Below, piece by piece: positions 25,295-44,357 of a stretch of DNA of 64,000 nt (positions are counted from its first letter, which is position 1; every line of letters starts with the position of its first letter). Where the stretch lies: NCBI GenBank assembly GCA_964652195.1, contig CAZZBB010000076.1, forward strand, positions 16,228 through 80,227. Direction: 5' to 3'. The DNA comes from an uncultured bacterium. GTDB lineage: Bacteria; Poribacteria; WGA-4E; WGA-3G. The position numbers and the translations under genes are program-made. The notes beneath the pieces are model-generated. The model saw nothing but the letters and a program-made list of their open reading frames with translations, was not told the origin of the DNA and did no database searches.

Positions 25295-26575
25295 ATGGAA
25301 AAGCTACCGAACATTGTTTTTATACTTGCTGATGATCACGGTTATGGTGATATCTCAGCACATAATGGACCCTCAATTCAAACACCACATATTGATAGAA
25401 TCGCAGATGAAGGCATACGACTTACACAATTCTATGCAAACTCATCTGTCTGTTCACCAAGTCGCGCATCGCTTATGACGGGTCGCTATCCGGATAGAGT
25501 TGGTGTGCCGGGGGTAATTCGAACACACCCAGAAAACAATTGGGGATATTTTCGACAGGATGCTATCACACTCCCATCAATATTAAAACAGAAAGATTAC
25601 AAAACATCTCTAATTGGTAAATGGCATCTTGGACTTGAAGATGAGAATCACCCATGTAAAAGAGGATTTGATTATTTTCACGGCTTTCTCGGTGATATGA
25701 TGGATGACTATTACACACATCTTCGCCATCAGAATAACTATATGCGTCGTGATTTTGAAACAATTGACCCAAGAGGACACGCTACCGATCTATTCTCAGA
25801 TTGGAGTGTTGAGTTTATCCAAGAACAGACACAATCTACACAACCCTTCTTTCTATATCTCGCATATAATGCACCGCACACACCGATTCAACCGCCGGAT
25901 GATTGGGTTGATAGAGTGAAGGATCGTGAACCAGATATTTCAGAACAACGGGCAAAATATATCGCTCTTGTTGAACACATGGATGCAGGTATTGGACGGG
26001 TTCTTGATTCACTTGAAAAAAACGATCAACTTTCAAATACTCTTGTGATTTATACATCTGACAACGGGGGGCAGATGGGGGTTGGAGCACATAACGGACC
26101 ACTCCGTGGGGAGAAGGGGCAGATGTATGAAGGTGGTATACGGGTGCCTACTTGTGCCATGTGGAAAGGAAATATTCCTCAAGGACATGTCTCAGATCAA
26201 GTCAGTATGATAATGGATTTTTATCCTACTCTTTGTGAAATAACAGGGATACATATAAACCATGATATTGAGGGACAGTCAATTTTGAAAACATTGCAAG
26301 GCGGAAAACAGGATCTATCCGAAAGGCTACTCTACTGGATTCGAAGAGAGGGAGGACAACAGTTCTTAGGAGATTGTCAACATGCAGTTAGACGTGGTGA
26401 TTTAAAACTGCTGCATAACAGACCCTTTGAACCACTTGAACTTTACGACTTATCAAATGATCCATTTGAAGCAACAGATACTGCCAAAACGAATACAGAT
26501 CTATTTAAAGAGATGGGGAATCTTTTTCAACAAGAAATACAGAAATCAGGGAGCATTCCTTGGCAAAAGGGATAA
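25295..26575 (+). CDS. Sulfatase (arylsulfatase A-like)
   Basis: PNIVFILADD, formylglycine motif CSPSR followed by LMTGRY, GKWHLG, YNAPH, SDNG, YEGGIRVP. Confidence 0.95.
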   Translation: MEKLPNIVFILADDHGYGDISAHNGPSIQTPHIDRIADEGIRLTQFYANSSVCSPSRASLMTGRYPDRVGVPGVIRTHPENNWGYFRQDAITLPSILKQKDYKTSLIGKWHLGLEDENHPCKRGFDYFHGFLGDMMDDYYTHLRHQNNYMRRDFETIDPRGHATDLFSDWSVEFIQEQTQSTQPFFLYLAYNAPHTPIQPPDDWVDRVKDREPDISEQRAKYIALVEHMDAGIGRVLDSLEKNDQLSNTLVIYTSDNGGQMGVGAHNGPLRGEKGQMYEGGIRVPTCAMWKGNIPQGHVSDQVSMIMDFYPTLCEITGIHINHDIEGQSILKTLQGGKQDLSERLLYWIRREGGQQFLGDCQHAVRRGDLKLLHNRPFEPLELYDLSNDPFEATDTAKTNTDLFKEMGNLFQQEIQKSGSIPWQKG

Positions 26576-26726: not shown

Positions 26727-26761
26727 TAACGTTGGTGTATACTATGTATACACCAACGTTA
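26727..26761. promoter_or_regulatory. Perfect 16-bp inverted repeat upstream of the grpE-hsp70 promoter (operator or terminator)
   Basis: taacgttggtgtatac-tat-gtatacaccaacgtta, ending 11 nt before the -35 box. Confidence 0.6.
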
Positions 26762-26772: not shown

Positions 26773-26801
26773 TTGACATGCCGTAAAATCCGTTGTATAA
26801 T
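26773..26801 (+). promoter_or_regulatory. Consensus sigma70 promoter of the Hsp70/J-like array locus
   Basis: TTGACA (26773-26778), 17-nt spacer, TATAAT (26796-26801). Confidence 0.8.
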
Positions 26802-26865: not shown

Positions 26866-27582
26866 TTGAGCAGTGAAATGAATAACGATCTTGATGCAAA
26901 ATTAAAAAAAATCTTGGATAGTCAGACAAACTTAGATACGGAAAATCCTGATGACACAGTAGATACTGTTGGAGATACCCCAATGGAGGACATGGAATTA
27001 CATCAGATAAATACACTTACTGAGATTAACCAGTCTTTGACGGTATTACTCGAATTATTTGAAAAACACATATCTGGAAATCAGAATCAAGTCCAGATGT
27101 TTGATAAAATGTATGCCGAAATGAAGGACTATAAAGAGAGTTTTCTACTTGAAGTACTTCATAAACCGGTTATCCATAACTTAATTCAACTCTACGATAG
27201 TTTTATATCACTTGAATCTCAACTTACTAACCTTATTGATGAGAATAATGATAACACACTATTAAATGAGTTGAGGCAATATAGTAGTAATTTACAGAAT
27301 TTTCGTTTTGAACTTGAAGAAGTTTTATACCGCATGGATGTAACACCCTATCAGAATTCACCAGATACATTGGATAGGCAGTTACATAAGACACGGAAAG
27401 TTATATCTACAGACGATCCAAATATGGATCAGAAAGTAGCAGAAGTGCATAAAATCGGATTCTATTGGCGTGAGAAAGTGTTTCGTCCGGAAGATGTAAC
27501 CATTTATCGTTATATGGCCTCCACAGAAAAATCTGAAAATGGTAATACTAAACATTCTTCAGATAAACAAAGGGGAGATTAA
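26866..27582 (+). CDS. grpE: GrpE-like nucleotide exchange factor
   Basis: Acidic N-terminal tail, long coiled coil, and C-terminal beta domain ...DQKVAEVHKIGFYWREKVFRPEDVTIY; its stop directly abuts the Hsp70 ATG. Confidence 0.8.
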   Translation: MSSEMNNDLDAKLKKILDSQTNLDTENPDDTVDTVGDTPMEDMELHQINTLTEINQSLTVLLELFEKHISGNQNQVQMFDKMYAEMKDYKESFLLEVLHKPVIHNLIQLYDSFISLESQLTNLIDENNDNTLLNELRQYSSNLQNFRFELEEVLYRMDVTPYQNSPDTLDRQLHKTRKVISTDDPNMDQKVAEVHKIGFYWREKVFRPEDVTIYRYMASTEKSENGNTKHSSDKQRGD

Positions 27583-29178
27583 ATGGGTAAAGTTGTCGGA
27601 ATAGATTTAGGTACGACATTTTCTGCGATAGCACATATAAATGAGCATGGACAACCTGAAATTATCCCCAATTTGGAGAGTGACCGAATTACACCATCGG
27701 TCGTAATGTTTGAAGACAATCTTGTAACCGTTGGAAAAATAGCTAAGCAGAATGCCAGAGCTGTCCCTGAACAAATTGTTGAGTTTATCAAAAGGGAGAT
27801 GGGTAAATCAAGAACGAATTTCTTCCGTACATTCGATGAAAAAGACTATTCCCCTGAAGAACTATCTGCGCTCATTATGAGGAAACTGAAACAAGATGCT
27901 GAGATCTATCTGAATGAAGAGGTGACTGATGCTGTAATCACTGTTCCTGCGTATTTTCACGACGCAGAAAGAGAAGCTACGCGAAATGCAGGGAAAATTG
28001 CTGGTTTTAATGTGCTTCAAGTCCTAAACGAACCGACCGCAGCTGCACTCGCTTATGGAATCGATCAACTTGGTAATAACCAAAATGTATTTGTATTTGA
28101 CCTTGGTGGTGGAACATTTGATGTGACAATTATGCAGGTCTCAGAATCTGAAATAAAAATGTTAGCAACAAATGGGGACCATCGGTTAGGGGGCAAAGAT
28201 TGGGACGACAAAATCATTACCTATGTTGCTGAGATGTTTGAGATAGAACATGGAGAGAATCCTCTGGATGATCTTCATACATATCAAGACCTTCAACTGG
28301 ATGCAATTGGAGCCAAAGAATCCTTATCTCAACGACAAAGAGCATTAATTGTATGTGGATATAACGGGAAGACAACCCGTGTTGAATTACTACGCGAGAA
28401 ATTTGAAGAACTTACGACAGATCTACTTGAAAGATGTCGAACTTTGTGTGAGTTAGTATTATCAGAGGCAGAAATGTCTTGGACAGATATTGACAAGATC
28501 TTATTGGTTGGGGGATCGACACGGATGCCTATGGTACAGGAAATGATCCGGTCAATAAGCGGTAAAGAGATTAATCCACATGAAGTTAATCCTGATGAGG
28601 TCGTCGCATTAGGAGCGGCTATTCAAGGAACTCTTCGTCAAATTACAGACGATACTGTTGAAACACCGGAAATGCCTGAAGCTGTTATAGAACGGTTTAT
28701 TGGACCGGATGGAGTACCAAAAGTCACTGTAACGGACGGTGCTACACATAATCTGGGTCTTGTTGTCCTCAATTCACAACGCGATTATATTATCCATGTT
28801 ATGATCCCAAAAATGACTGCTGTTCCGTGTGAAATTGCTGATCAATTCTTGACTGTTGACGAAAACCAACCAACTGTGCTAATTGAGGTAGTGCAAGGAC
28901 TTGAACAGGATCAACTTAGGGATCAAATACCATTTTTTGATGAATATAAGCTGGGAGAATGCACACTTGAATTACCTAACGGATTACCACAAGGATCTCC
29001 AATTGAGGTAAACTATAAATATAATTTAGACCAAAATCTCGAGGTAACAGCAAAATCATTGACAGATGACGGTCCTACAGCAGTTTTTGATATCTTTTCA
29101 ATAATTGATAGACCTACACTTAATGAAGAAGAAGTTTCCAAAGCACAAACAGATCTGCAAGAACTGACAGTTGAATAA
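27583..29178 (+). CDS. Non-canonical Hsp70 (DnaK-like) protein lacking the C-terminal lid
   Basis: GIDLGTTFS, TVPAYF, NEPTAAALAYG, VFDLGGGTFD, LVGGSTRMP, NPDEVVALGAAIQ; beta substrate-binding domain present; only 531 aa. Confidence 0.93.
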   Translation: MGKVVGIDLGTTFSAIAHINEHGQPEIIPNLESDRITPSVVMFEDNLVTVGKIAKQNARAVPEQIVEFIKREMGKSRTNFFRTFDEKDYSPEELSALIMRKLKQDAEIYLNEEVTDAVITVPAYFHDAEREATRNAGKIAGFNVLQVLNEPTAAALAYGIDQLGNNQNVFVFDLGGGTFDVTIMQVSESEIKMLATNGDHRLGGKDWDDKIITYVAEMFEIEHGENPLDDLHTYQDLQLDAIGAKESLSQRQRALIVCGYNGKTTRVELLREKFEELTTDLLERCRTLCELVLSEAEMSWTDIDKILLVGGSTRMPMVQEMIRSISGKEINPHEVNPDEVVALGAAIQGTLRQITDDTVETPEMPEAVIERFIGPDGVPKVTVTDGATHNLGLVVLNSQRDYIIHVMIPKMTAVPCEIADQFLTVDENQPTVLIEVVQGLEQDQLRDQIPFFDEYKLGECTLELPNGLPQGSPIEVNYKYNLDQNLEVTAKSLTDDGPTAVFDIFSIIDRPTLNEEEVSKAQTDLQELTVE

Positions 29179-29253
29179 ATTCCTACACAAATTTACATTT
29201 TCTTAGATAATATCATTAGCATTTCTACCTAAGGTTAACAACAGGATTTACGA

Positions 29254-30648
29254 ATGTCTGATCGAGATGAATTTATATCCTTTGTAACAGATTTTAAAGT
29301 TGTCTCACCTACTATTTCGGACGAACAACGTAAAGGTCTTTTACGGAGAGCTGTACATCAACACGGTCTTACAGTTGAAGATGCTAATGGAATATTGGAT
29401 AATACGGGTCTTGTAATTGGTGAACAACAGGTAAATTATTTTGAAGTATTAGGTATACTGCTTGAAGAGACTAAAAATAAGACCGAATCAGAGATTTCAG
29501 ATCATGTTGTTTCCATACACAAGAGACTATATAGTAAATCCTTGAATTCAGGGGGTCGTCCACGGCATGATGGAAGGTCAGAAGAACAGTGGCGAAGATT
29601 ATTGAATCAAGCTCGTGATGTCCTTATTGATCCCATTAAGAGGCAAGGATATATTGATGAGCTAAATACTTACGATAATGAAGATACTTACGATAATGAA
29701 GAGTTTCATGATGATATATCAATTAAGCCAACCACTTCTATAAGCAATTTATCATTTAATGTTGATGAAAGGGTTATACCAGCACACAAAAAAGTTGTAT
29801 TTACTGTAGTATTTTCACCTGATGGCACATGTGTTGCCAGTGGTAGTGCTGACAAATCAATATGTATCTGGGATATTCAGGCTGAAAAGCAGAAACATAT
29901 TCTTAATGGTCATAATGATACAGTAACATCTGTTAGGTATTCACCAGACGGTAAAACCATAGCAAGCGGGAGTTTTGACGGAACAGTATGTTTATGGAAT
30001 GCTAAATCCGGAGAGTTGAAAAAACGATTAACTGGACAAAAAGATAAGATTAGTTCCGTGGCTTATTCACCTGATGGAAAAACAATAGCAAGTGGAAGTT
30101 ATAATGGAACTATTCAATTATACAATGCTGAGACTGGTGAACCAAAAATCCTCCTCAAAGGACATAGAAATTGGGTTAGTTCAGTTGTATACTCACCTGA
30201 TGGGAAAACAGTTGCATGTGCAAGTTATGACGGGAAGGTCTATTTGTGGAATACTGAAACAGGCGTAAATATACATGTCCTAACAGGTCATAAATTTAGT
30301 GTTATCGCAGTAACCTATTCACCTAATTCTGATACAATCATAAGTACAGATCTGCAAGGAACAATTCTTGCCTGGAATGCAGTTTCTGGCGAACCAAGAA
30401 TCCTACCTACGGGTTTTATGTCCTGGATTAGTTCAGTAGCATATTCCCCGGATGCAACTATTCTCACTTGTGGTAGTTTTCATGGATCAATCACTTTATG
30501 GAATACAGATACATGGGAGGAATTAAAAACTATTAAGGGGCATACGTCAACTGTAAAAGCACTATCCTACTCTCCAGATGGAAGGATTCTGGCAAGCTGC
30601 GGTGGAGATGGTAATGTACGTCTTTGGAGTTCATCATTATACGAATAA
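29254..30648 (+). CDS. J-like N-terminal module fused to WD40 beta-propeller (array member 1)
   Basis: N-terminal ...VNYFEVLG...GGRPRHDGRSEEQWRRLLNQARDVLIDPIKR; seven WD40 repeats (GH...V.SV.YSPDG...ASGS.DG.V.LW). Confidence 0.9.
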   Translation: MSDRDEFISFVTDFKVVSPTISDEQRKGLLRRAVHQHGLTVEDANGILDNTGLVIGEQQVNYFEVLGILLEETKNKTESEISDHVVSIHKRLYSKSLNSGGRPRHDGRSEEQWRRLLNQARDVLIDPIKRQGYIDELNTYDNEDTYDNEEFHDDISIKPTTSISNLSFNVDERVIPAHKKVVFTVVFSPDGTCVASGSADKSICIWDIQAEKQKHILNGHNDTVTSVRYSPDGKTIASGSFDGTVCLWNAKSGELKKRLTGQKDKISSVAYSPDGKTIASGSYNGTIQLYNAETGEPKILLKGHRNWVSSVVYSPDGKTVACASYDGKVYLWNTETGVNIHVLTGHKFSVIAVTYSPNSDTIISTDLQGTILAWNAVSGEPRILPTGFMSWISSVAYSPDATILTCGSFHGSITLWNTDTWEELKTIKGHTSTVKALSYSPDGRILASCGGDGNVRLWSSSLYE

Positions 30649-30734
30649 TACCTACTCAAGCTGCCGATCATTAATGATAGAATACTACAACTGAATTATA
30701 CAGGTTCATATAGAATTTCAAATTGGTTTAATTA

Positions 30735-31985
30735 ATGTCCAAGCGCGATGAATTCTTTGCTTTTATCAATACTCTCAAAGATGCATCACCTACGATTACT
30801 GACGAACAGCGTAAAGGTTTTCTCAGGCTTGCAGTTGAAAAATATGGTTTAACTGTTGATGAAGCAACATCTATATTCAATGCATCGGGTATAATAATTG
30901 GTGAAATAGTTGATCTATTTGAAATCTTTGGATTAACTGGCATAGAGATTAAGAGATATAATCAATCTGAAATTGTCGATCGCGTTGAGTCAATCCATAG
31001 TAAACTATATAGTGAATCTTTAAAGTCCGGGGGTCGTCCGCGTCCAGATGGTAGGTCAGAGGAACAGTGGCGAAGATTGTTAAATCAAGCACGAGACACA
31101 CTAACTGACCCGAAAAAACGTCACGAATATCTTGCAACACTTCAATATAAAGAACCATTAACTGAAACAATTTCAGGAACTACAAGCCTTGAGAATATGT
31201 CACTTATTCCTGAAGGTGAGTTTGAAATGGGTAGCAACGATGACGAGACTTTTGATGATGAACATCCGGTTCATACCGTTTTTCTAAACGAATTCTATAT
31301 TGACCAATATCCTGTAACCAATGCACAATACAAGGCATTCCTTGATGCGAATCCACAGTGGAATAAGCATGAAATCCCAAAAAAGTATTGTGATGTTGAC
31401 TATCTTAAGCATTGGCGTAGGAGTAGTTTTCCAAGTGGGGAAGCAGATTATCCTATTGTCAATGTAAGTTGGTATGCTGCTATGGCTTATGCTCAATGGC
31501 GAGGTAAACGTCTTCCCACTGAAGCTGAATGGGAAAAAGCTGCACGTGGTGGTCTTGCCGGCAAACAATACCCATATGGTAATTCATTAGATTCTACTCA
31601 AGCGAATTATGACTGGAATGAGGGACATGCCACACCCGTTGCCAAATATCCTTCTAATGGATATGAACTTTATGACATGTGTGGCAATGTTTGGGAATGG
31701 TGTCTTGATAGATATGAGAAACATTATTATAGAAACTCACCGACTCGTAACCCTATTGCTGGTGATGATACTATTGACTGGTTGAATGACAACTTCTTAG
31801 ATATTAAATCCAATCGTGTATTACGTGGTGGTTCATGGCGGATACCTGCCTCATTAGTGAGAACAGCAAAACGAAATGCAGAATCTCCCATGTTTTCACT
31901 GAATGTGATTGGGTTTCGTTGTGTAATTCAAGCTTTACCGACAGATAATTCTCATTTCCCTCCTACCGTAGGATATGCTGCCTAA
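30735..31985 (+). CDS. J-like module plus FGE-sulfatase/SUMF1-fold domain (array member 2)
   Basis: Shared N-terminal module; [65 protein letters not shown]. Confidence 0.9.
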   Translation: MSKRDEFFAFINTLKDASPTITDEQRKGFLRLAVEKYGLTVDEATSIFNASGIIIGEIVDLFEIFGLTGIEIKRYNQSEIVDRVESIHSKLYSESLKSGGRPRPDGRSEEQWRRLLNQARDTLTDPKKRHEYLATLQYKEPLTETISGTTSLENMSLIPEGEFEMGSNDDETFDDEHPVHTVFLNEFYIDQYPVTNAQYKAFLDANPQWNKHEIPKKYCDVDYLKHWRRSSFPSGEADYPIVNVSWYAAMAYAQWRGKRLPTEAEWEKAARGGLAGKQYPYGNSLDSTQANYDWNEGHATPVAKYPSNGYELYDMCGNVWEWCLDRYEKHYYRNSPTRNPIAGDDTIDWLNDNFLDIKSNRVLRGGSWRIPASLVRTAKRNAESPMFSLNVIGFRCVIQALPTDNSHFPPTVGYAA

Positions 31986-32007
31986 CCTTCTCTATCGAAA
32001 TTAGACT

Positions 32008-33393
32008 ATGCTTAAACGTAATGAGTATATAGACTTTATAAATGAATTTAAAACTGTATCTCCAACTATCACAGATGAACAAAGGATTGGTCTTCTGCGA
32101 CGAGGTGTTCAACAACATGGTCTATCAATTTCTGAGGCAGAGAACATAATTCTATCATCAGGATTAATTATCGGTGAACAGATAGATTATTTTCAAATAT
32201 TAGGATTATCCATAGAAGATATACAGAATCAAAACGAGGACTTAATTACAACAGAAGTTGATACGATACACAGAAAACTATATAACGCCTCCTTAAAAGC
32301 AGGAGGTCGTATACGATCAGATGGTAGGACTGAGGAACAGTGGCGTATCATACTAAATGAAGCACGGGATACTCTCAAGAATGTTGAAAAACGAAAATCT
32401 CATATTGAAATACTACAAACCGATGTTCTACCCCCGATTGAAATCCTATCTGAAGATACTCCTATACAAGAAACTGAAACAACACAAGAAACAATTCCAA
32501 CACAACCGACAGAACAGTCAAGTGTGTTGCCATCAGTAGAAGTTCTTCCTGAAGATGAATCTATTCAAAGAACTGATACTCTTGAAGAATCCATTTCATC
32601 ACAACCCGTAGTAGAAGATGGTATGGCACTCATTCCTGCCGGAGAATTTCAAATGGGGAGTAACGATATTGAGGCTTACAATGACGAAAAGCCTATACAT
32701 ACTGTATACATAGATACATTCTATATTGATCAATATCCTGTCACGAATGTAGAATATAAAGAGTTTATTGATGCCAATCCTGAATGGCATAAACCCAAAA
32801 AATGGTATGATAATACTGGAAATATTGATGGTATTCACAAGAAATATCATGACGGTGATTACCTAAAGACTTGGAAAAGAAACAACTTTCCAAAAAATGA
32901 AGTTCATCATCCTGTAACTTGGGTGAGTTGGTATGCTGCAATGGCTTACGCACAATGGAAAGGTAAACGACTACCAACCGAAGCTGAATGGGAAAAAGCT
33001 GCACGAGGTGGTTTGACAGGACAAAAATATCCATGGGGAAATACCATAAGCCTGAATCGTCTAAACTACGATCTATATATCAGTAATACAACCGAAGTAG
33101 GTCAATATCCTGAAAATGGTTATGGTATTTATGATATGGCGGGAAATGTATTTGAATGGTGTATAGATGTATGGAATGAAAACTACTATATTAATTCTCC
33201 ATACAATAATCCTGTCGCTGATGGATATTTAGCAGATATTTTAGCTGATTTCACAAGTGTAATGACACCGAGAGTGGTGCGTGGTGGATCTTCTGTAAGT
33301 ACTCCGAGAAACACACGGGTTTCATATCGACATAGAAATACACCTAAATTGACATGTTTTAGTATTGGATTCCGTTGTGTAAGATCTAAATAA
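32008..33393 (+). CDS. J-like module plus FGE-sulfatase-fold domain (array member 3)
   Basis: Same architecture; long E/T/Q/P-rich linker. Confidence 0.9.
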   Translation: MLKRNEYIDFINEFKTVSPTITDEQRIGLLRRGVQQHGLSISEAENIILSSGLIIGEQIDYFQILGLSIEDIQNQNEDLITTEVDTIHRKLYNASLKAGGRIRSDGRTEEQWRIILNEARDTLKNVEKRKSHIEILQTDVLPPIEILSEDTPIQETETTQETIPTQPTEQSSVLPSVEVLPEDESIQRTDTLEESISSQPVVEDGMALIPAGEFQMGSNDIEAYNDEKPIHTVYIDTFYIDQYPVTNVEYKEFIDANPEWHKPKKWYDNTGNIDGIHKKYHDGDYLKTWKRNNFPKNEVHHPVTWVSWYAAMAYAQWKGKRLPTEAEWEKAARGGLTGQKYPWGNTISLNRLNYDLYISNTTEVGQYPENGYGIYDMAGNVFEWCIDVWNENYYINSPYNNPVADGYLADILADFTSVMTPRVVRGGSSVSTPRNTRVSYRHRNTPKLTCFSIGFRCVRSK

Positions 33394-33422
33394 CCTACAT
33401 TTTTTATATAATTATTCTATCT

Positions 33423-34595
33423 ATGGCTGAAAATAAAGAATTCATCGCATTTGTAAATAGATTAAAAACACTATCACCAACCATAACCGAAGAGCAGCGT
33501 ATTGGTCTTCTGCGGCAAGGTGTGCAAGAATATAGCCTCACTACAGATGAAGCGGATAATATTCTGAAAACATCAGGATTAATTGTTGGAGAACAAGATA
33601 GTTATTTTGATGTCTTAGGAATCTCAATTGAAGAACTAGAAAATCTTAGTGACGCTGATATCCTTGCACATGTTGAATCTTCCCACGCCAAACTTTACCG
33701 AGAATCATTGAATGCAGGGGGTCGTCCAAGAACCGATGGTAGGACAGAAGAAGAGTGGCGGACACTTCTAAATCAAGCTCGAGATACATTAATAGATTCT
33801 GATATACGACGATTACACTATACAAATTTACAACATGCAGAAACTTCTTTAGATGATGGGATAACACATCAAAGTTCTGAAAATATGGTGTTAATCCCAG
33901 AAGGAGAGTTTCAGAATGAGTATATTGATGCATTCTATATAGACTCATATCCGGTTACGAATCTACAGTACAAGTTATTCCTGGATGCAAACCGTCAGTG
34001 GAAGATTCCTAAACTAATTGATGTTTTTAGGATGGGGAAATTTAGAGATGGAGACTATTTGAAGACTTGGGTAAGGAACAAATTTCCACCTGGGAAAGAA
34101 GATCATCCTGTAACTTGGGTGAGTTGGTATGCAGCAATGGCATACGCTCAATGGTTAGGTAAAAGATTACCCACAGAAGCAGAATGGGAAATAGCGGCAC
34201 GTGGAGGTTTAATAGAGAAAAAATTTCCATGGGGGAATTCGGTTGATCATTCTTTAGCAAATTATAATAAATACATAGGTGAGACAACTCCTATTGGTAA
34301 ATATCCTGCTAACAATTATGATGTATATGATATGGTTGGGAATGTATCTGAGTGGTGTTTAGATGAATGGGATAGAGACGTAAATCAATCTTCCTTTCGA
34401 ATAAATCCAGTTGAAGAAGAGAGTATTGAGGATATAATAGAGAATTATTCCGAATCGAGAAAGAAACGTGTATTAAAAGGTAGTTCATGGTATTCTTCCA
34501 CTAAAGACCTACAGATATCCTACAGATACGGATTAGCACCAAGGAAAACAGTAAGCGTAGTAGGATTTCGCTGTGTGAAACCAATTAATAAGTAA
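33423..34595 (+). CDS. J-like module plus FGE-sulfatase-fold domain (array member 4)
   Basis: Same architecture; lacks the MGS...HxV hairpin found in all siblings. Confidence 0.88.
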   Translation: MAENKEFIAFVNRLKTLSPTITEEQRIGLLRQGVQEYSLTTDEADNILKTSGLIVGEQDSYFDVLGISIEELENLSDADILAHVESSHAKLYRESLNAGGRPRTDGRTEEEWRTLLNQARDTLIDSDIRRLHYTNLQHAETSLDDGITHQSSENMVLIPEGEFQNEYIDAFYIDSYPVTNLQYKLFLDANRQWKIPKLIDVFRMGKFRDGDYLKTWVRNKFPPGKEDHPVTWVSWYAAMAYAQWLGKRLPTEAEWEIAARGGLIEKKFPWGNSVDHSLANYNKYIGETTPIGKYPANNYDVYDMVGNVSEWCLDEWDRDVNQSSFRINPVEEESIEDIIENYSESRKKRVLKGSSWYSSTKDLQISYRYGLAPRKTVSVVGFRCVKPINK

Positions 34596-34637
34596 ACCGA
34601 ATATTTCTCTTGTTAAAGACCTATTTGAGGATCAAGC

Positions 34638-35930
34638 ATGCGTGAATATGAAGAATTTATCTCTGTCATTAATACACTCAAAGTACTATCAACGATCATC
34701 ACTGAAGCACAACGTATTGGTCTTTTGCAACAAGGTGTGCAAGAATTTGGTCTCACTACAGATGAAGCGGATAATATTCTGAATACATCAGGATTAGTTG
34801 TTGGAGAACAAGATAGTTATTTTGATGTCTTAGGAATATCAATTGAAGAACTTGAAAAACTCAGTGAAGCTGATATCCTTGCACATGTTGAATCTGTCCA
34901 CGACAAACTTTACCGAACATCTTTGAATGCAGGGGGTCGTCCGCGGTCTGATGGCAGATCAGAAGTAGAGTGGCGAAACCTTTTGAATCAAGCAAAAGAT
35001 ACAATAACAGATCCCCTAAAAAGAAGTGAATATATTTCCATTCTACAACAGGTAAAAATACAGGATTTCAGTGCTGAACCATCACAGGAATTGGATTCAT
35101 CCGATGCAAACACAAATAGACCTCATGCCTTAAGTAATACATTTGTACCAGATGGTATTGATGTGCCTGATGACATGGTATATATACCAGCAGGTGAATT
35201 TCAAATGGGGAGTGAACATGCAGATGCTGAGGAGGATGAACAGCCTATTCACACAGTTTTTGTTAATGCATTTCTTATGGATAAAAATCCTGTGACAAAT
35301 AGAGAATTTAGAGAATTTCTACATACTAATCCTGAGTGGCAGAAACCTGATCATCTTAATTATCATATCATTTCGAATTTTCATGATGGTTCATATTTGA
35401 AGGATTGGCAGATGAATATGTATCCACCTGGAAAACGTGATCATCCAGTGACGCAGGTGAGTTGGTTTGCTGCGATGGCGTATGCCAGATCAGTAGGTAA
35501 GCGTCTGCCGACTGAAGCAGAATGGGAAAGAGCAGCACGCGGCGGCTTGGATGGTAAACACTATTCTTGGAGTAATGTTGAAGATTTCGTTAATGCAGAT
35601 GAGTATTTAAATGCTGAAGATACTTTACCAATCGGTCTTACACCTGCCAATAACTATGGACTTTATGATATGTGTGGCAATGTATGGGAATGGTGTCTTG
35701 ATGCATATAATGAGGATTTCTATAACGAGGCACCATAGAATAACCCATTTTATGGACCTAATAGCAAAGAATGGGTAGTAGAAAACTTTAGCCGTATAAC
35801 AATCGAACGTGTATTACGCGGTGGTCCTTGGGGTTTTGATGCTTTAGGGGCACGAGTTTCACAACGACTCAGTAGTGCCCCAACCGATACTTTACCAACT
35901 TACAGTTTTCGTTGTATAAAGTATATTTGA
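34638..35930 (+). pseudogene. J-like module plus FGE-sulfatase-fold domain (array member 5) with one in-frame TAG
   Basis: ORF stops at TAG 35736-35738, but the same frame continues NNPFYGPNSKEWVVENFSRITIERVLRGGPW...YSFRCIKYI to TGA at 35930. Confidence 0.85.
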
Positions 35931-35995
35931 TGGGAATGGTCTTATCAATTGAATTATTTCATAGAATACTGAAAATATAAATCGACTTATTAAAA

Positions 35996-37276
35996 ATGGC
36001 AAAACGTGAAGAATTCATTCAGCTTATCAACACTTTTAAAGCGGTGTCAGCTACAATAACAAACAATCAAAGACGAGGTTTGTTGCAGCAAGCTGTACAG
36101 ATCTATGATCTCTCTATTGAAGAAGGTATAGAGATATTGGATTCATTAGGAATAGTTGTTGGGGATGAGGTAAATTATTTCGAGATATTAGGACTATCCA
36201 TTGAGGAAATACAAGGCAAGGATGACCAGACGGTTACTGATATTGTTAAAATAGCACATGATGACTTGTATAAAGTCTCCTTAACTGCTGGAGGACGGGT
36301 CAGATCAGATGGAAGGACTGAAGACCAGTGGCGAATATTACTGAATCAAGCGCGGAATATTCTGGGTGAAAAAGAAAAAAGAAACGAATACATCTCTGCT
36401 CTTCTTCAAGAAGAGTCTAAAGAATTTTCAACTCCGAATACACCTACGATTCCGAGTACCGAACCAAATTCTATTGAAATTGTATCTGAACCGACCTCTC
36501 ACATAATAACAGATCCTGACGATATAGAAATACCATCTGAAATGGTATTGATCCCTTCAGGAGTATTTATTATAGGATCTCAAAGTAAAGACATAAACGG
36601 TAGTGATTTACCACTACATAATGTGTACTTACACTCATTCCTGATTGATAAATATCCTGTAACTAATTCTGAATTCCGTGTTTTTCTCACTGAGAACGAA
36701 CAATGGCAGAAGAAATACATATCCGAAAAATATCACAATGGTAAATACCTTAGATCTTGGAACGGGAATAACTATCCAAAAAATAAAGACAATGATCCGG
36801 TTGTCGATATAAGTTGGTATGCTGCAATGGCTTATGCTCAATGGATAGAGAAACGACTTCCTACAGATATTGAATGGGAAAAAGCTGCACGTGGAGGGTT
36901 AACTGAAAAAACGTATCCCTGGGGCGATGATATTACTAACGACCTGGCGAATTACGGAATGTTTGTCGGGAATACAACCCCTGTTGGAAACTACCCTCCA
37001 AATGAGTATGGTGCGTTTGATATGGTTGGCAATGTATGGGAATGGTGTCTTAATCATTATGAACATATTGAAGCATTTAGTAAACCAAGTATATCTGTTG
37101 AACAGATGAGTAATATCTTAGATTCCTATTTAGATGTCGAAAGCAATCGTGTGTTACGTGGAGGTTCATGGGCAAGTAGTGAACGAGCTCTTTCGGTTGC
37201 ATATAGAGGTAGTGCTGCTCCTAGTTGTACATATTACAGTTACGGATTTCGATGTGTTAAGGATATTCATAGATAA
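35996..37276 (+). CDS. J-like module plus FGE-sulfatase-fold domain (array member 6)
   Basis: Same architecture; GGRVRSDGR loop; RVLRGGSW...YGFRCV. Confidence 0.9.
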   Translation: MAKREEFIQLINTFKAVSATITNNQRRGLLQQAVQIYDLSIEEGIEILDSLGIVVGDEVNYFEILGLSIEEIQGKDDQTVTDIVKIAHDDLYKVSLTAGGRVRSDGRTEDQWRILLNQARNILGEKEKRNEYISALLQEESKEFSTPNTPTIPSTEPNSIEIVSEPTSHIITDPDDIEIPSEMVLIPSGVFIIGSQSKDINGSDLPLHNVYLHSFLIDKYPVTNSEFRVFLTENEQWQKKYISEKYHNGKYLRSWNGNNYPKNKDNDPVVDISWYAAMAYAQWIEKRLPTDIEWEKAARGGLTEKTYPWGDDITNDLANYGMFVGNTTPVGNYPPNEYGAFDMVGNVWEWCLNHYEHIEAFSKPSISVEQMSNILDSYLDVESNRVLRGGSWASSERALSVAYRGSAAPSCTYYSYGFRCVKDIHR

Positions 37277-37336
37277 AATATCTTCAACTCTAATGTATAT
37301 CTAATTTTTAGAGTTCATCTCATTGGTACTGTATTA

Positions 37337-38713
37337 ATGGCAAAACGTGAAGAATTTATAGATGCAATCAATTTGTTTAGGTCTGCCTCACAATCCATAT
37401 CGGTAGAACAACGGATAGGACTTTTACAACAAGCTGTACAAGAGTATGGACTATCAATAAAAGAAGCTGATGAGATAATCAAAGAAACAGGGCTAATAGT
37501 CGGCGGGACTATTAATTACTTTAGGGTCTTAGGTTTGTCCAATCATGAATTTGAAAATCTAAATGAAACCACTATTACATCAATTATAGATGAAGCACAT
37601 AGAAAACATTATACAGAATCATTAAGAGCTGGGGGACTTCCTCGTCCTGACGGGAGAACCCAAGAACAGTGGCGAATCATCCTAAATCATGCACGATATA
37701 CTTTAATAGATCCTCATAAACGCGAAGAATATCTATCACAATTATTGAGAGAAGAAGATTCATCTGATAGTTTCATTAATGATGTTTCCAACAATAATAC
37801 CACTGATACAGAAAACTATAATCCGAATCTTGCCCAGTCAATCTCAACTGATAATAAAGAACATTTAGCGCATGCACCTTCGATTGTAGAAAATAAACAA
37901 GTATTTATTCATCCTGATGTACCTGCAAATATGGCATATATCCCTGCTGGTGACTTCAGGATGGGGAGTAATGATGAAAAAGTTGGAAACATAGAAAAAC
38001 CTGCCCATGTTGTGTATGTTGACGAGTTTATTATAGACAAGTATTTAGTTACCAATGCAGAATATAAAGAGTTTGTAGATGCTAACCCTCAATGGGCAAA
38101 GCCAACAAAATGGTATCACTTTGAGAAACAGAAGAAATCCTATATACATGAAAAATACCATGATGGAGATTATCTTAAGCATTGGAATGAGAATACATAC
38201 CCTGATAGTAAAGCAGAACATCCAGTGACATGGGTGAGTTGGTATGCAGCAATGGCGTATGCTGAATGGGTGGGTAAACGTCTCCCAACAGAAGCAGAAT
38301 GGGAAAAAGCTGCGCGCGGTGGAATAACTGGACAGAATTATCCTTGGGGAGAATCAATTGATTATACTAAGGCTAATTATAATAGCTATATTGGTGAAAC
38401 AACTTCTGTAGGTGAGTATCCAGCAAACGGATATGGAATTCATGATATGATAGGAAATGTTTGGGAATGGTGTCTTGACGAGTATCAGGAAAATTACTAT
38501 GCAAGTTCAGAACGCAAGAACCCAATTTGTGGTGTAAATACGGTTGAATCAATAGAATATAGTGATATGGATAATAGACATGCACGGGTAATGCGAGGAG
38601 GTTCTTGGCTTGATTCCTCTCAATTCGTCCGTTCTGCATCCCGTTACAGGAACACCCCTATACGTACTCTCGCAAGAATTGGGTTTCGTTGTGTAAAAAT
38701 CGTTCCTTCATAA
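37337..38713 (+). CDS. J-like module plus FGE-sulfatase-fold domain (array member 7)
   Basis: Same architecture; GGLPRPDGR loop. Confidence 0.9.
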   Translation: MAKREEFIDAINLFRSASQSISVEQRIGLLQQAVQEYGLSIKEADEIIKETGLIVGGTINYFRVLGLSNHEFENLNETTITSIIDEAHRKHYTESLRAGGLPRPDGRTQEQWRIILNHARYTLIDPHKREEYLSQLLREEDSSDSFINDVSNNNTTDTENYNPNLAQSISTDNKEHLAHAPSIVENKQVFIHPDVPANMAYIPAGDFRMGSNDEKVGNIEKPAHVVYVDEFIIDKYLVTNAEYKEFVDANPQWAKPTKWYHFEKQKKSYIHEKYHDGDYLKHWNENTYPDSKAEHPVTWVSWYAAMAYAEWVGKRLPTEAEWEKAARGGITGQNYPWGESIDYTKANYNSYIGETTSVGEYPANGYGIHDMIGNVWEWCLDEYQENYYASSERKNPICGVNTVESIEYSDMDNRHARVMRGGSWLDSSQFVRSASRYRNTPIRTLARIGFRCVKIVPS

Positions 38714-38769
38714 TCGAAGCATTATGATTTTTTCTACGACAATCTACACTAATAAAATGGTGGTTTGTT

Positions 38770-40155
38770 TTGGCTAATCGTAACGAATTTATCTCAATTG
38801 TCAACACACTTATATCCCTATCAAAATCAATTACAGATGACCAGTATAAAAGTCTTCTACAACAAGCTGTTCAGGAATATGACCTAACTCTTGATGATGC
38901 ATCGGAGATATTGACGACATATGGATTGGTTGTTGGTGAAAGTGTTAACTATTTTGAGGTATTAGGTCTATCCATTGATGAACTTACCCATCAAGATGAA
39001 ACTGAGATTGCTTCACATATTGAGATTGCACATAAGAGACATTATACAGAGTCTTTACAGGCAGGTGGACTTCCGCGATCAGATGGTAGAACACAAGAAC
39101 AGTGGCGGACATTGCTAAATGATGCATTTTATACGCTAATAGATTCCCAGAAACGAACTGAATATATAGACTCCTTAACGAAGAATAGATCCCAAGATGA
39201 AGGACAAGAAAATATAGGAGATGACCCAAAATCAGAAGAGCAAGTAATTACTACTCAGAAATCAACATCTATAAGTTTCTCTGTTCCAGAAAACATGAAT
39301 CATATCACCTCTGGAGAATTTCAGATGGGTAATCAAAACGAAAATGCAAATGATCGTGAAATTCCTGTACATTCTGTCTTTGTCGATGAGTTTTATATGG
39401 ATAAATATCCTGTGACAAATGCACAGTATAAGAGATTTGTTGATGCTAATCCGGTATGGAGTAAACCAGCAAGCAGTTTGGTTTGGCATAGAAAAAACAA
39501 ACGAATTATTACAGGTAGGATGACCCGACAAGATTACTTAAAGAATTGGAATGGAAACACTTTTCCACAAGAAATGGAAGACCATCCAGTTACTTATATT
39601 AATTGGTATGCTGCAATGGCGTATGCAAAATGGATCGGTAAACGTTTACCAACAGAAGCTGAATGGGAAAAAGCTGCACGTGGGGGGATAATAGGTCAGA
39701 ATTATCCATGGGGAAACACTTTGGATGCCGACAGAGCAAATTGTAATAATACTATTGGTGAAACCACCTCTGTTGGAAAATTTCCTCCGAATAACTACGG
39801 TTTGTATGATATGGTTGGAAATGTCTGGGAATGGTGTCTGGATGAATATCAGACTGACTACTATTCTCATTCACCGAATGAAAATCCAATTGCGGGATAT
39901 GACACTAAAGAGAAATTGTATGCTTTATGTTCTTATTATGGGAATATTGATACTGAACGTGTGTTACGAGGGGGCACTCTATTTTATTCATCTGAACCCA
40001 TTAATATCCACGTTAGATGGGGAGGTGATCCATCACTTACAAATTACTATTCTTCAGATTCATCAAAGATAGTTGCACGATATTCTTCAGGACTCATGGT
40101 AAACATTGGGTTCAGATGTGTTTGGGATGTGAATATGCAGAAACAATCTAAATAG
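38770..40155 (+). CDS. J-like module plus FGE-sulfatase-fold domain (array member 8)
   Basis: Same architecture; 18-aa insertion in the C-terminal variable segment. Confidence 0.9.
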   Translation: MANRNEFISIVNTLISLSKSITDDQYKSLLQQAVQEYDLTLDDASEILTTYGLVVGESVNYFEVLGLSIDELTHQDETEIASHIEIAHKRHYTESLQAGGLPRSDGRTQEQWRTLLNDAFYTLIDSQKRTEYIDSLTKNRSQDEGQENIGDDPKSEEQVITTQKSTSISFSVPENMNHITSGEFQMGNQNENANDREIPVHSVFVDEFYMDKYPVTNAQYKRFVDANPVWSKPASSLVWHRKNKRIITGRMTRQDYLKNWNGNTFPQEMEDHPVTYINWYAAMAYAKWIGKRLPTEAEWEKAARGGIIGQNYPWGNTLDADRANCNNTIGETTSVGKFPPNNYGLYDMVGNVWEWCLDEYQTDYYSHSPNENPIAGYDTKEKLYALCSYYGNIDTERVLRGGTLFYSSEPINIHVRWGGDPSLTNYYSSDSSKIVARYSSGLMVNIGFRCVWDVNMQKQSK

Positions 40156-40280
40156 GAGGTTTCTACTTTGATAGTAATTGGTAATGTGAGTTCATGATAA
40201 GAAATACTATACCATTTTAAATTGATAGATTTAAATTAGGACTTTCTTGTTACGAGGATTATCATATACATATTATGAGT

Positions 40281-40415
40281 CCCGGGGAATGCAATAAGGC
40301 ATTCATACCCGACGAATGCCCGGTGAATGACCTAATGTCATTCATACCTGGTGAATGCTATATAGCATTCATACCGTTGATTCCTTGATTCCTTGATTTG
40401 GTAGGGACGAAATGT
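40281..40415. repeat. Composite palindromic/octamer repeat element
   Basis: Three GAATG-loop-CATTCATACC hairpin units, TTGATTCC repeats, then CGAAATGT; same layout at 55251. Confidence 0.8.
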
Positions 40416-40504
40416 TTATAGAAAACACCAAAATTCGTGAAAACAACAAAAACATTTAGTTAACTGGCACAAGTCGTTATAGTCATCTATATAATTAATA
40501 ACTG

Positions 40505-41980
40505 GTGGTACGCATGTCAAATCGTGATGAGTTTATTGCTGTCGTAAATACACTCAAAACACTCTCTCATACAATTACAGATGAACAGAATAGGAGTTTA
40601 TTACAGCAGGCAGTCCACGATCATGGTCTCTCAGTAGAAGGCGCGATGGAGATAATCAATTCATTAGGGATAACTGTAGGGGAAAGGATAAACTACTTTG
40701 AGGTATTGGGGTTTTCTATTGAAGATTTAACTTCGCAAGATGAATCTTCTATTACTAAAAATCTTGAAAATGCTCACATAAAATACTACACCGAATCATT
40801 ACAAGCAGGTGGGTTACCCCGACAGGATGGTAGGACTCAAGAACAGTGGCGTACAATTCTAAATCAAGCCTATGATACATTGAAAGATCCAATAAAACGC
40901 AAGGAACATATTGAAACCGTACAAACTGAGTCATCTCATGAAGAAAACACATCAACTATAGTAACCGAAATATCTGAGCCTAAAGATACCTCATTACAAG
41001 TTGCAGTTCCAGAAGAAATGGTCTTAATTCCATCTGGGGATTTTCAGATGGGTAATAGTGATGAAAATGCAAATCTACGGGAAACACCAGTACATATTGT
41101 CGGAACGGATGCATTTTATATTGACAAATATCCAGTTACAAATGAACAATATAAAGCGTTTATAGATGCAAACCCATTATGGCGGAAACCATCTGATGGG
41201 ATGTGGTTAGATCTTCAAAAATGGTATGAGAAATATAAGGCGTTTATAGATGCAAACCCATTATGGCGCCCATTATGGCGGAAACCATCTGATGGAACGT
41301 GGTTAGATCTTCAAAAATGGTATGAGAAAGGGGGCGATCGGTATAATTACATATATGATAAATATCATGATGGAGAGTATCTGAGACATTGGACACACAA
41401 TAAGTTCCCTCTTGAGACAGCTGATCATCCTGTTACGAATGTAAGTTGGTATGCAGCAATGGCGTATGCACAATGGGTTGGCAAACGTCTGCCAACAGAA
41501 GCTGAGTGGGAAAAAGCTGCGCGTGGAGGGTTAAATGGTCAGAAATATCCTTGGGGTGATTTCATGAATTCAAGCATGGCAAATTGTGGTGAGAATGCAG
41601 ATAAGACCACACCTATAGGTAAGTATCCTGCAAACAATTTCGGTATTTTTGATATGGTTGGGAATATATGGGAATGGTGCCTTGATGAATATGTAATTGA
41701 TTATTATACTTCCTCTACATCTCTGAATCCTATCGCAGGTGTTGACTCAAAGAAGGACTTGGATAATTTAATTCGTAATTTTAGAGTGGTTGATAGTGAT
41801 CGTGTTTTGCGAGGTGGCACATCCTTTATTTCATCAGAACCTATCCATACTTCCGCACGATGGGGTGGAACACCTATTCTTACTGAATTTACTGCCTCCT
41901 ATATGACAAAGTATTTAGAAGCTTTTTCAATGACAATCGCTGCAAACATTGGCTTCAGATGTGTATGGGATACAACGTAA
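40505..41980 (+). CDS. J-like module plus FGE-sulfatase-fold domain (array member 9)
   Basis: Same architecture; internal 84-bp tandem duplication; 18-aa C-terminal insertion like member 8. Confidence 0.9.
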
Positions 41981-42044: not shown

Positions 42045-44357
42045 TTGATTATGAGAAACAAAAATAATTACGTGTTATGGTATAACCAACCCGCACAAGA
42101 GTGGACGGATGCCCTACCCATTGGAAATGGACGACTTGGGGCAATGGTGTTTGGGGGAGTAGAACAGGAACGTATCCAACTCAATGAAGAAAGTCTTTGG
42201 GAAGGTAGTTTTCAGGATACAAATAATCCTAAAGCACTTGATGCACTCCCAATAGTTCAACAATTGTTGTTTGAAGACAAAAATGATGAAGCCACAAAAC
42301 TTGCTGGGGAAACGATGTTGGGGGTTCCACATCGTATAAAATCCTATCAGTCTTTAGGTGACATTTTTATTGATTTTGCCAATCACAGTAAAATTACAGA
42401 ATATAACCGAGAACTTGATTTAGTTACAGGTATAGCAAAGACAACCTATCAGGTTGGTAATGATAAGATCAACAGAGAAGTCTTCGCTACTGCTGTTGAT
42501 GATATTATCATTATCCGTATTAAATCCAATTCTGCCAATGGGGTTAATTTTGATGTCACAATGACTCGAGAACAGGACGCATTGATTGCATGCATATCAG
42601 ACAATATCCTTAGACTTGATGGAGAATGTAGTGATGGTGGTCTACGTTTTTCTGCATATCTGAAGGCAAATGTTGATGATGGAAAAATAGAATCGAATGA
42701 AGATAGAATTTCTATTCGTTCTGCAAGCAGTGTGACATTGCTACTGTCTGGGGCAACGAGCTATATCAATCAAAAAGATGCAACGGGTAATCCACATGAA
42801 TTGTGTGAAGGTTATCTTGCATCAGCAGAATACAAATCTTATGATGAATTACGTTCAGACCACATTCAGGAACATCAATCCCTATTCCAAAGAGTGGACA
42901 TTAACCTCGGTTCAAGCGATGCGGATAATCTACCTACAGATGAACGTTTAGCAAAAGTGAAGGAAGGGGCATCTGACCCAGGACTTGTTTCACTATATTT
43001 TCAGTTTGGACGTTATTTGTTAATGGGTAGTTCAAGACCTGGATGTCTCCCAGCAAACCTTCAGGGAGTTTGGAACCATCATATGAAGGCTCCTTGGAAT
43101 AGTGATTACCACACCAATATTAATTTACAAATGAATTACTGGGTTCCAGAAGTATGCAATCTTGCAGAGTGTCACAAACCACTATTTGATTATATGGATA
43201 CACTCGTTGAACCCGGAAGTGAAACAGCAAAACGGCATTATGGTGCAGGTGGTTGGGTTGTACATCACTTATCTGATATATGGGGATTTACAACCCCAGC
43301 AGATGGAATTTGGGGTATATCACCTGTGGGTGCAGCATGGTTAAGTGAACATGTTTGGGAACATTACCTATTTGGGGGTGATGAGGATTTTCTTAGAGAG
43401 CAAGGATACCCTTTAATGAAAGGTGCTGCACGGTTTATGCTTGATTTTCTAATTGAAGCACCAGAAGGAACGCCTTTTGCTGGAAAACTCGTAACGAATC
43501 CTTCCCATTCACCTGAAAACAGTTTCCAAAAAGCAGATGGTACGCGTTCACTCTTCACTTACGCCGCAACAATTGACCTTGAGATAATTCATGAACTATT
43601 TACAAATTGTATAGATTGTCTTGATGTACTTGAAATTGATGCGGATTTCCGAGAAGAATTAGTTTCATCTCTGGAGCGGTTGGCACCACTACAAATTAGT
43701 GAAAAAACAGGTAGACTGCAGGAGTGGATATATGACTATGACGAACCGGAACCAGGACATAGACATATGTCGCATATGTATGGTCTGCATCCCAGTTGTC
43801 AAATAACACTACGGGGCACTCCTGAGTTAGCAGAGGCAGCACGAAAATCTTTGGAATATCGATTACAACATGGTGGTGGACAAACAGGATGGAGTCGGGC
43901 ATGGTTGGTGAATTTCTTAGCACGACTTGAAGATGCTGAGGAAGCGTATAACCATTTACATGCACTCCTGGCAAGGTGCACCTTAACGAACCTGTTCGAT
44001 ACTCATCCTCCATTCCAGATTGATGGAAACTTTGGGGGAACTGCCGGAATTGCTGAGATGCTTATTCAAAGTCATGCCGGAGAAATTAACCTATTACCTG
44101 CACTACCAAAAGCATGGGATACGGGTTATGTGAGGGGATTACGTGCTCGAGGTGGGTTTGAAGTGGATATGGAATGGGAAAATGGTTCACTTACCAAGTC
44201 GAGTATATCTTCTCAACTTGGTAGGGAATGTACGGTTCGATCAACAGAAACTGTTTCAGTGTCGTGTGGAGGTGAAGAAATTGAAACAACTGAATCTGAT
44301 TCAGTGACAACATTCAGCACAGAAATTGGAAAAACTTATGTATTATCTACGTCATAG
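42045..44357 (+). CDS. Glycoside hydrolase family 95 (alpha-1,2-L-fucosidase-like)
   Basis: [55 protein letters not shown]. Confidence 0.93.

Follow-up and report, generated by a model that had tools for sequence, protein, structure and literature searches.

What does a bacterium do with nine consecutive genes that share one N-terminal module and follow a gene for an Hsp70 chaperone? The question is raised by a locus in a 64-kb stretch of Poribacteria DNA (contig CAZZBB010000076.1; here called the window, whose coordinates are used throughout), where a grpE-like gene and an Hsp70 gene are followed by nine co-directional genes, here named adaptors 1 to 9. This gene content, claimed in a preliminary description of the locus, was confirmed by open reading frames (ORFs) and by Pfam, and the stop codon of the grpE-like gene abuts the start codon of the Hsp70 gene. 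Each of the nine adaptors consists of a module of about 136 amino acids (aa), called the N-module below, an acidic linker of 22-73 aa and a C-terminal domain, which is, as claimed before, of the WD40 type in one protein and of the formylglycine-generating enzyme (FGE)/C-type lectin (CLec) type in eight (PF03781). In none of the nine does any 19-residue segment reach the hydrophobicity of a signal peptide or membrane helix, in agreement with the earlier statement that signal peptides are lacking, and the adaptors thus look cytoplasmic. On balance, we favour the reading that this Poribacteria-specific operon encodes a germline repertoire of adaptors and the dedicated Hsp70 machine that they serve. 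Below, we set out the evidence that carries this reading and then weigh it against the alternatives.

The N-module is the common element of the array, with 46-60% identity among the nine paralogues and 29 invariant positions, while the whole adaptor proteins are 39-54% identical. NCBIfam gave sub-threshold matches only, of which a weak one between adaptor 9 and the HscB J-domain model was the first hint of its fold. The AlphaFold2 (AF2) model of the N-module of adaptor 2, built from an alignment of 52 sequences (mean predicted local distance difference test score, pLDDT, 84.8), consists of a three-helix subdomain (residues 1-57) and a helical domain (58-137), and the helices of the J-like part span residues 77-97, 109-124 and 126-137. 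When the PDB was searched with this model by Foldseek, the top 19 matches were all J domains, with a probability of up to 0.98 and a target-normalised TM-score of up to 0.73, at E values of 0.3-2 that are not significant alone. A profile search of PDB sequences returned two matches only, both J domains, those of Zuotin (E 0.27) and HscB (E 0.61). Comparison by hhalign with seven canonical J domains, whose sequences were entered by hand, gave a probability of 93.6% (E 2e-7) over residues 58-135. Taken together, these three results support a J fold for residues 58-137 of the predicted structure. The full-length AF2 model of adaptor 7 was too poor to use (pLDDT 52). The two halves of the N-module are separable, since there are distant relatives that carry the J-like half alone or the two halves in swapped order.

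The preliminary description had called the module J-like, and in its fold this stands; the module is, however, not a canonical J domain. The HPD tripeptide is absent from all nine paralogues and from the 52 aligned relatives, and the Pfam DnaJ family (PF00226) stays below its gathering threshold, with matches in two of the nine adaptors (best E 0.026) and a score of 12.7 bits for adaptor 1 against a cut-off of 27.8. Because of these two results, the N-module counts as J-like but falls outside the J-domain family in its usual definition. The loop between helices II and III (residues 98-108) has the sequence S/A-G-G-(R/L)-P-R-x-D-G-R, after which comes (S/T)-(E/Q)-E-(Q/E)-W-R. Within the window, residues G99, G100, R103, D105, G106, R107, W112 and R113 never vary, and the loop GG(R/L)PRxDGR is invariant over more than 200 genes. 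Such an invariant replacement loop suggests a new active interface, not a dead one.

The Hsp70 of the operon is similarly unusual. Its nucleotide-binding domain (NBD) is intact and the beta part of its substrate-binding domain (SBD-beta) is kept. The helical lid is absent, since the PF00012 match covers profile positions 1-515 of 599 and the protein stops just after the beta-sandwich domain. Equivalents of the DnaK residues K70, P143, R151, E171 and T199, which serve ATP hydrolysis and allostery, are conserved; the score lies below the DnaK and HscA equivalog cut-offs (427 bits vs 648). In an alignment to E. coli DnaK, the position of Arg167 is occupied by Gln in all 40 readable Hsp70s of these loci, and Gln is also found there in four further loci (L061, L062, L063 and L065; labels of this form denote the Poribacteria loci compared), while a neighbouring Hsp70-vWA paralogue retains the Arg. 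In DnaK, Arg167 reportedly pairs with the Asp of HPD (Suh et al. 1998; Kityk et al. 2018). Loss of HPD on the adaptor side and of Arg167 on the Hsp70 side gives the appearance of co-variation at an interface that has been rewired. Since HPD is missing and the Hsp70 no longer has the Arg by which it would be read, the earlier proposal that the adaptors trigger ATP hydrolysis in the manner of DnaJ can be put only conditionally.

At least 120 protein clusters are at least 69% identical to this Hsp70. The C-terminal end of the protein (29143-29178), compared among the genes of 41 loci, forms a conserved acidic tail (...TDLQDL(V/T/I)VE-COOH) reminiscent of the EEVD tail used for docking in eukaryotic Hsp70; upstream, the gene for a cytoplasmic TPR protein is syntenic. 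The GrpE-like protein scores 34.7 bits against PF01025 (cut-off 25.8), over profile positions 12-163 of 165, has no NCBIfam match and has orthologues in 28 loci.

If the module and this Hsp70 work together, they should be found together. With 130 representatives in 1.84 billion proteins, the N-module is rare, and the 59 genome loci recovered are all from Candidatus Poribacteria. The Hsp70 is present at 41 of the 59. Homologues occurring mostly without an Hsp70 neighbour would speak against the dedicated link proposed in the preliminary description; among 246 unique module ORFs, 206 (84%) lie in Hsp70-headed arrays, and each examined Hsp70 of this clade has a module protein next downstream. The module is thus tightly tied to the Hsp70, usually together with GrpE, over about 40 Poribacteria loci and distant loci as well. 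The conserved gene order is TPR protein, cytoplasmic Cys-type sulfatase, GrpE-like protein, Hsp70, adaptors and GH95 glycosidase. Complete arrays hold 2-8 adaptors, the window nine and L002 at least 11. The C-terminal domain is of the FGE type in 207 of the 246 module ORFs and of the WD40 type in 17, and in other loci the partners include TPR, ankyrin (ANK) and membrane-anchored domains. No relatives of the module were found in viral contigs, searching with a profile of the distant J-like half gave short unnamed fragments only, and a word-indexed homology search returned only fragments of up to 240 aa.

The more distant loci vary this theme. At L061 the order is sulfatase, GrpE, Hsp70, module/membrane protein, TPR and GH95, and at L053, L059 and L062 the Hsp70 is followed by a module/membrane protein, with a membrane-anchored FGE protein downstream. 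The distant loci L063-L065 (GC 45%) encode GrpE and a 533-aa Hsp70 that is 69% identical to that of the window and carries Q167, followed by up to four J-like-half proteins with ankyrin, membrane or FGE parts. Some arrays or pairs are detached from the Hsp70, and at least two of these (L034, L049) are in genomes that have an Hsp70 locus. Transposase-like ORFs adjoin such detached adaptor pairs (L034:2603-3550 and 7045-7983; L049:8053-9246), which suggests that the locus was split by rearrangement in some genomes.

Further observations concern the composition of these loci. A second kind of module protein (L053, L056, L059, L061, L062, L048, L058) joins the N-module to a conserved domain of about 300 aa (FKFPNGDEA...) and membrane helices, and often precedes a membrane-anchored FGE protein; in the distant relatives P0134 and P0142, the N-module, the ~300-aa domain and the membrane and FGE parts are combined in one protein of about 1000 aa. 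In one Poribacteria lineage (L014, L023, L025, L027, L029, L031, L033, L036, L038), a gene for an ankyrin-repeat protein of about 300 aa occupies the site of the GrpE-like gene (e.g., L025:4480-5388), and the arrays of this lineage hold 2-3 adaptors only. Both genes are present at L028 and L052.

The C-terminal domains are the parts of the adaptors that would meet a target. In adaptors 2-9 the PF03781 match has E values of 1e-50 to 1e-63, and FGE entries of the PDB are matched with E values down to 1e-36. In the alignment to the FGE structures 6muj and 2q17, another residue stands in place of the first catalytic Cys and a gap in place of the second, and the copper-binding Cys pair (GGS-x-x-C-x-x-x-x-C) was found in none of the eight FGE-type paralogues. 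A true formylglycine-generating enzyme is ruled out, since both catalytic Cys are absent. This supports the view that these domains are non-catalytic binding modules; the preliminary description had already taken them for recognition domains. Their PDB matches include the Treponema protein TvpA (2y3c), a variable protein of a diversity-generating retroelement (DGR) that uses the same FGE/CLec fold as a variable ligand scaffold. A role of the adaptors as DGR targets was ruled out for the window, which, unlike DGR loci, holds neither a reverse transcriptase (no ORF with a YxDD motif) nor a template repeat (no second copy of the FGE C-terminal segments in the 64 kb). According to column entropy, variation is spread across several FGE loops and is not focused on the DGR-equivalent C-terminus.

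Next, we looked at the selection acting on the array. Values of dN/dS were calculated by NG86, gene-wise and region-wise, against three orthologous arrays. They amount to 0.15-0.32 for the adaptors and 0.03-0.05 for the Hsp70, with the adaptors evolving about 5x faster, and to 0.07-0.08 for the sulfatase and 0.14 for the GH95 gene. Related arrays show gene gain and loss and strain-specific frameshifts or nonsense codons; adaptor 8, for example, is without an orthologue in L001 and L016, and its orthologue in L002 is 61% identical. Judged from these sequence comparisons, the repertoire is old, and its diversity appears to derive from ancient paralogues, not from hypermutation.

The layout of the array is given in Table 1. 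All nine genes claimed in the preliminary description are present, but at least one of them looks like a pseudogene. In adaptor 5, the reading frame runs for 63 codons past an in-frame TAG, and the gene is a probable pseudogene or the site of a sequencing error. The earlier statement that the genes are mostly 22-86 nt apart holds for the spacers with one exception, the 358 nt between adaptors 8 and 9; the apparent 257-nt gap after adaptor 5 is the remainder of that gene, because the frame continues beyond the TAG to 35930. Compared with its longer L001 orthologue, adaptor 4 lacks about 20 aa of the N-terminal part of the FGE domain. The internal duplication of adaptor 9 comprises 84-96 nt of the FGE domain (41142-41329), and the repeated segment ends ...LDLQKWYEK; homology suggests the ATG at 40514 as the start of this gene.

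Table 1. Genes and regulatory features of the Hsp70-adaptor locus in the window.
Feature	Coordinates	Strand	Remarks
grpE-like gene (238 aa)	26866..27582	+	Pfam PF01025, E 1.8e-8
Hsp70 gene (531 aa)	27583..29178	+	PF00012, E 5e-122
Adaptor 1 (464 aa): N-module + seven-blade WD40 propeller	29254..30648	+	seven WD40 repeats; L001 orthologue 88% identical
Adaptor 2 (416 aa): N-module + 22-aa linker + non-catalytic FGE/CLec	30735..31985	+	PF03781, E 1.8e-62
Adaptor 3 (461 aa): N-module + 73-aa acidic linker + FGE/CLec	32008..33393	+	
Adaptor 4 (390 aa): N-module + FGE/CLec without the first ~28 profile positions	33423..34595	+	PF03781 match from position 29
Adaptor 5: N-module + FGE/CLec, in-frame TAG at 35736-35738	34638..35930	+	L001 and L016 orthologues uninterrupted
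Adaptor 6 (426 aa): N-module + FGE/CLec	35996..37276	+	
Adaptor 7 (458 aa): N-module + FGE/CLec	37337..38713	+	L001 orthologue split by a frameshift
Adaptor 8 (461 aa, TTG start): N-module + FGE/CLec, extended C-terminal loop	38770..40155	+	
Adaptor 9: N-module + FGE/CLec, internal duplication	40514..41980 (ORF from 40505)	+	
Perfect hairpin, 16-bp stem	26727..26761	+	between sulfatase gene and operon promoter; terminator-like element or operator
Sigma-70-type promoter TTGACA-17-TATAAT	26773..26801	+	12/12 matches; ~65 nt upstream of the grpE-like gene

The intergenic regions orthologous to this one in L001, L002 and L016 have both promoter hexamers unchanged but conserve the arms of the hairpin only in part. 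Compared by eye with the CIRCE/HrcA consensus, the hairpin showed no resemblance to that operator. No terminator-like sites were found on the + strand between the promoter and a point near the end of the array. Thus, the predicted signals are consistent with a single operon of about 15 kb, separate from the sulfatase gene upstream. The long spacer before adaptor 9 (40156-40513) contains three tandem palindromes of about 29 nt at 40281-40375 that resemble repetitive extragenic palindromic (REP) elements (CC.GG.GAATGC...GCATTCATACC), and similar short sequences lie between genes at eight or more other Poribacteria loci. The operon is flanked upstream by genes for a Cys-type sulfatase (25295-26575; CSPSR motif, no signal peptide) and the cytoplasmic TPR protein (24078-25250), and downstream by a gene for a GH95 glycosidase (42045-44357); these three genes are the syntenic anchors of the locus across Poribacteria.

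How might such an operon work? Gene content, the loss of HPD and Arg167, the linkage to the Hsp70 and the missing FGE catalytic residues, together with the fold, are shown by the analyses above; for docking, ATPase control, targets and biological role we infer the following scheme. The operon would encode a self-contained machine made of a lidless Hsp70, its own GrpE-type exchange factor and adaptor co-chaperones. The C-terminal domain of each adaptor (FGE/CLec or WD40 in the window; TPR, ankyrin or membrane-anchored elsewhere) would select a particular target, and the N-module, with its GG(R/L)PRxDGR loop, would dock on the private Hsp70, which has Gln for Arg167, at a rewired interface. The Hsp70 would then be loaded onto the target or the adaptor, and ATP hydrolysis would lead to trapping, holding, remodelling or disassembly, after which the GrpE-like factor would reset the cycle.

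As to the role of this machine, surveillance inside the cell or a conflict with invaders, phage among them, is plausible, and it seems the most likely one because the N-module is appended to ZorD and because caspase and vWA genes are found at related Hsp70/J-like loci. Two independent assemblies (L039 and L030) have the complete 136-aa N-module fused to the C-terminus of ZorD within a complete type I Zorya operon, ZorA-ZorB-ZorC-ZorD (L039:2326-10411, L030:~6599-10411). PADLOC-DB v2 identified the full type I system in L039 (ZorA 2e-52, ZorB 6e-68, ZorC 6e-35, ZorD E 0). L057, in turn, encodes a module-TPR protein. From the ZorD fusion and this protein, the N-module appears to behave as a portable adaptor, carried on sensors and, at least once, on a defence effector. 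There are no Zor genes in the window, and what the fusion demonstrates is limited to the portability of the module and its use in a defence context. The distant GrpE/Q167-Hsp70/J-like loci (L063:3709-7976, L065:1-7331) adjoin genes for a caspase-PEGA-FGE protein with a signal peptide and for a CARDB-caspase protein, and their neighbours include an Hsp70-vWA fusion that retains Arg167. The ZorD fusion and these caspase/vWA neighbours lean towards a conflict role. Comparative genomics has led to the prediction that intracellular FGS (FGE-sulfatase) domains sense invaders (PMC8195603), phage sensing by bNACHT25 has been shown to be mediated by DnaJ (PMC12169576), and a different Hsp70/GrpE/DnaJ-FNIII theme is centred on GAP1-N2 GTPases (PMC7159879, PMC8195603). 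The architecture seen here is described in none of the three papers.

A more far-reaching proposal would be chaperone-based innate immunity: the private Hsp70 would be aimed by germline-encoded lectin-fold and repeat receptors at invader proteins and would unfold or disassemble them at the expense of ATP, while the same module would also wire Hsp70 to ZorD and to caspase/vWA systems. We offer this only tentatively, as possible rather than likely.

Several observations weigh against the reading of a dedicated machine with a conflict role. HPD-less J-like domains such as Pam16 generally do not stimulate Hsp70. About 16% of the module genes are away from any Hsp70, no Hsp70 lies near one distant high-GC protein that has just the J-like half, and an ankyrin-repeat gene takes the place of GrpE at about ten loci. 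The operon is flanked by housekeeping, metabolic and glycan-degradation genes, not by a defence island; PADLOC gave only chance-level or repeat-driven matches on the genes of the window, and the operon encodes no toxic effector. Finally, every adaptor region is under purifying selection (dN/dS 0.14-0.45, with the maximum in the linker), and the adaptors have conserved positional orthologues in related genomes. Such constraint and orthology fit stable targets better than an arms race. As no adaptor region exceeded a dN/dS of 0.45 in the comparison with the three orthologous arrays, we detected no positive selection, and an arms-race signature is unsupported at this resolution.

The same constraint and positional orthology are what one would also expect if the module proteins were cargo. 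The N-module would then be a tag that hands FGE, WD40, ANK and TPR proteins to the Hsp70 for folding, assembly or export to the sponge host, much as N-terminal trafficking domains do in arrays of polymorphic effectors. Tandem genes whose products keep their N-terminus and vary at the C-terminus fit this picture, a lidless Hsp70 could accept folded or large clients, and these protein classes are known to be enriched in sponge symbionts. However, there are no secretion-system genes in or beside the operon, the adaptors carry no signal peptides, the ZorD to which the module is fused is an intracellular nuclease/helicase, and a J fold marks a co-chaperone, not a client. We thus consider the cargo explanation unlikely.

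The absence of HPD and the DnaJ score far below threshold could alternatively mean that the J-like module is a non-stimulating regulator that holds the Hsp70 inactive, or an inert oligomerising scaffold, comparable to Pam16, or that the linkage is historical and the array is decaying. The nonsense codon, deletion and frameshifts seen in the window and its close relatives would agree with decay. This is nevertheless quite improbable, as the replacement loop is invariant in more than 200 genes, the dN/dS of the N-module (0.14-0.26) indicates constraint, and the linkage to Hsp70 persists over divergent loci.

The Cys-type sulfatase gene, directly upstream of the operon and syntenic in most loci, raises the idea of sulfatase maturation or quality control in an organism rich in sulfatases. 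Unfolded sulfatases would be bound at their CxPxR motif by the FGE-like domains, and the Hsp70, brought in by the J-like module, would keep them competent for modification or export. The adaptor domains do belong to the family of FGE. Yet both catalytic Cys are missing in all eight FGE-type paralogues, the hairpin and a conserved separate promoter part the sulfatase gene from the operon, and the fusions of the N-module to WD40, TPR and ANK domains and to ZorD do not fit. Since the downstream GH95 gene is equally syntenic, the synteny of the sulfatase gene may be merely positional, and we regard this explanation as very improbable. An ordinary stress-response set of DnaK, DnaJ and GrpE paralogues for general proteostasis can practically be dismissed: the gene order is that of classical dnaK operons, and the Hsp70 ATPase motifs are intact, but the Hsp70 lies below the DnaK equivalog cut-offs, lacks the lid and has Gln in place of Arg167, the adaptors have no glycine/phenylalanine-rich (G/F) region, zinc finger or client-binding C-terminal domains (CTDs), the paralogues are nine and of receptor type, and the module family is extremely rare.

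Having weighed these alternatives, we return to the dedicated Hsp70 machine with its adaptor repertoire and ask how it relates to known systems. With DnaK-DnaJ-GrpE, HscA-HscB and HscC-DjlB/DjlC it has in common an Hsp70 with NBD and SBD-beta and a co-chaperone with a J fold. Further shared features are the GrpE exchange factor, the order grpE-hsp70-J and the logic of one Hsp70 with dedicated class-C-like J proteins. Unlike all of these, the locus has GG(R/L)PRxDGR for HPD, a lidless Q167 Hsp70, an additional three-helix subdomain before the J fold and 2 to at least 11 tandem adaptors with lectin-like, WD40, TPR or ANK domains, and has no G/F region, zinc finger or CTD. In class C J proteins (auxilin, Zuotin, Sec63), a J fold and a target-specific domain recruit Hsp70, as proposed here, and Pam16/Tim16 is J-like, lacks HPD as the N-module does and acts with Hsp70 systems. 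In contrast to these proteins, the present locus is bacterial and operon-encoded, with a private Hsp70 and an invariant replacement loop.

A second comparison concerns the conflict systems described by Kaur, Burroughs, Iyer and Aravind (eLife 2020, PMC7159879; eLife 2021, PMC8195603), in which FGS and WD40/TPR sensors occur with chaperone NTPase regulators; comparable parts are present here. Their principle of the effector-associated domain (EAD), that is, one adaptor domain on several proteins of a locus, may have a parallel in the N-module, which is found on FGE, WD40, TPR, ANK, membrane-anchored and ZorD proteins, with the Hsp70 as NTPase. However, the N-module is not among the published EADs, and the operon of the window is without an enzymatic effector. 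The published Hsp70-containing conflict systems involve GAP1-N2 or DO GTPases and tubulin and are found in actinobacteria and firmicutes, whereas our locus has no GTPase, MoxR-vWA, STAND NTPase or DGR. Neither PMC7159879 nor PMC8195603 describes the module without HPD or the clade of Hsp70s with Q167.

We found no published description of a chaperone locus of this architecture in the literature, as the preliminary description had supposed. The parts themselves (Hsp70, GrpE, the J fold and the FGE/CLec and WD40 binders) are already known, as is the targeting logic of J proteins. What appears to be undescribed is the operon-encoded receptor repertoire, the HPD-less invariant loop together with a lidless Q167 Hsp70 clade, the extra N-terminal subdomain and the fusion to ZorD. 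If the reading favoured here is correct, this would be the first bacterial case in which a large family of receptor-type co-chaperones, encoded in an operon, targets one Hsp70, a kind of targeting so far linked with eukaryotic J-protein networks. The exchange of HPD for another invariant loop, while the corresponding Arg of the Hsp70 has changed, would constitute a natural experiment on the coupling between J domain and Hsp70. The ZorD fusion provides a concrete link between a chaperone system and an anti-phage system. For the sponge symbionts, finally, the finding would recast some of the 'eukaryote-like' WD40, ANK and TPR proteins and of the 'sulfatase-modifying' proteins as intracellular chaperone adaptors.

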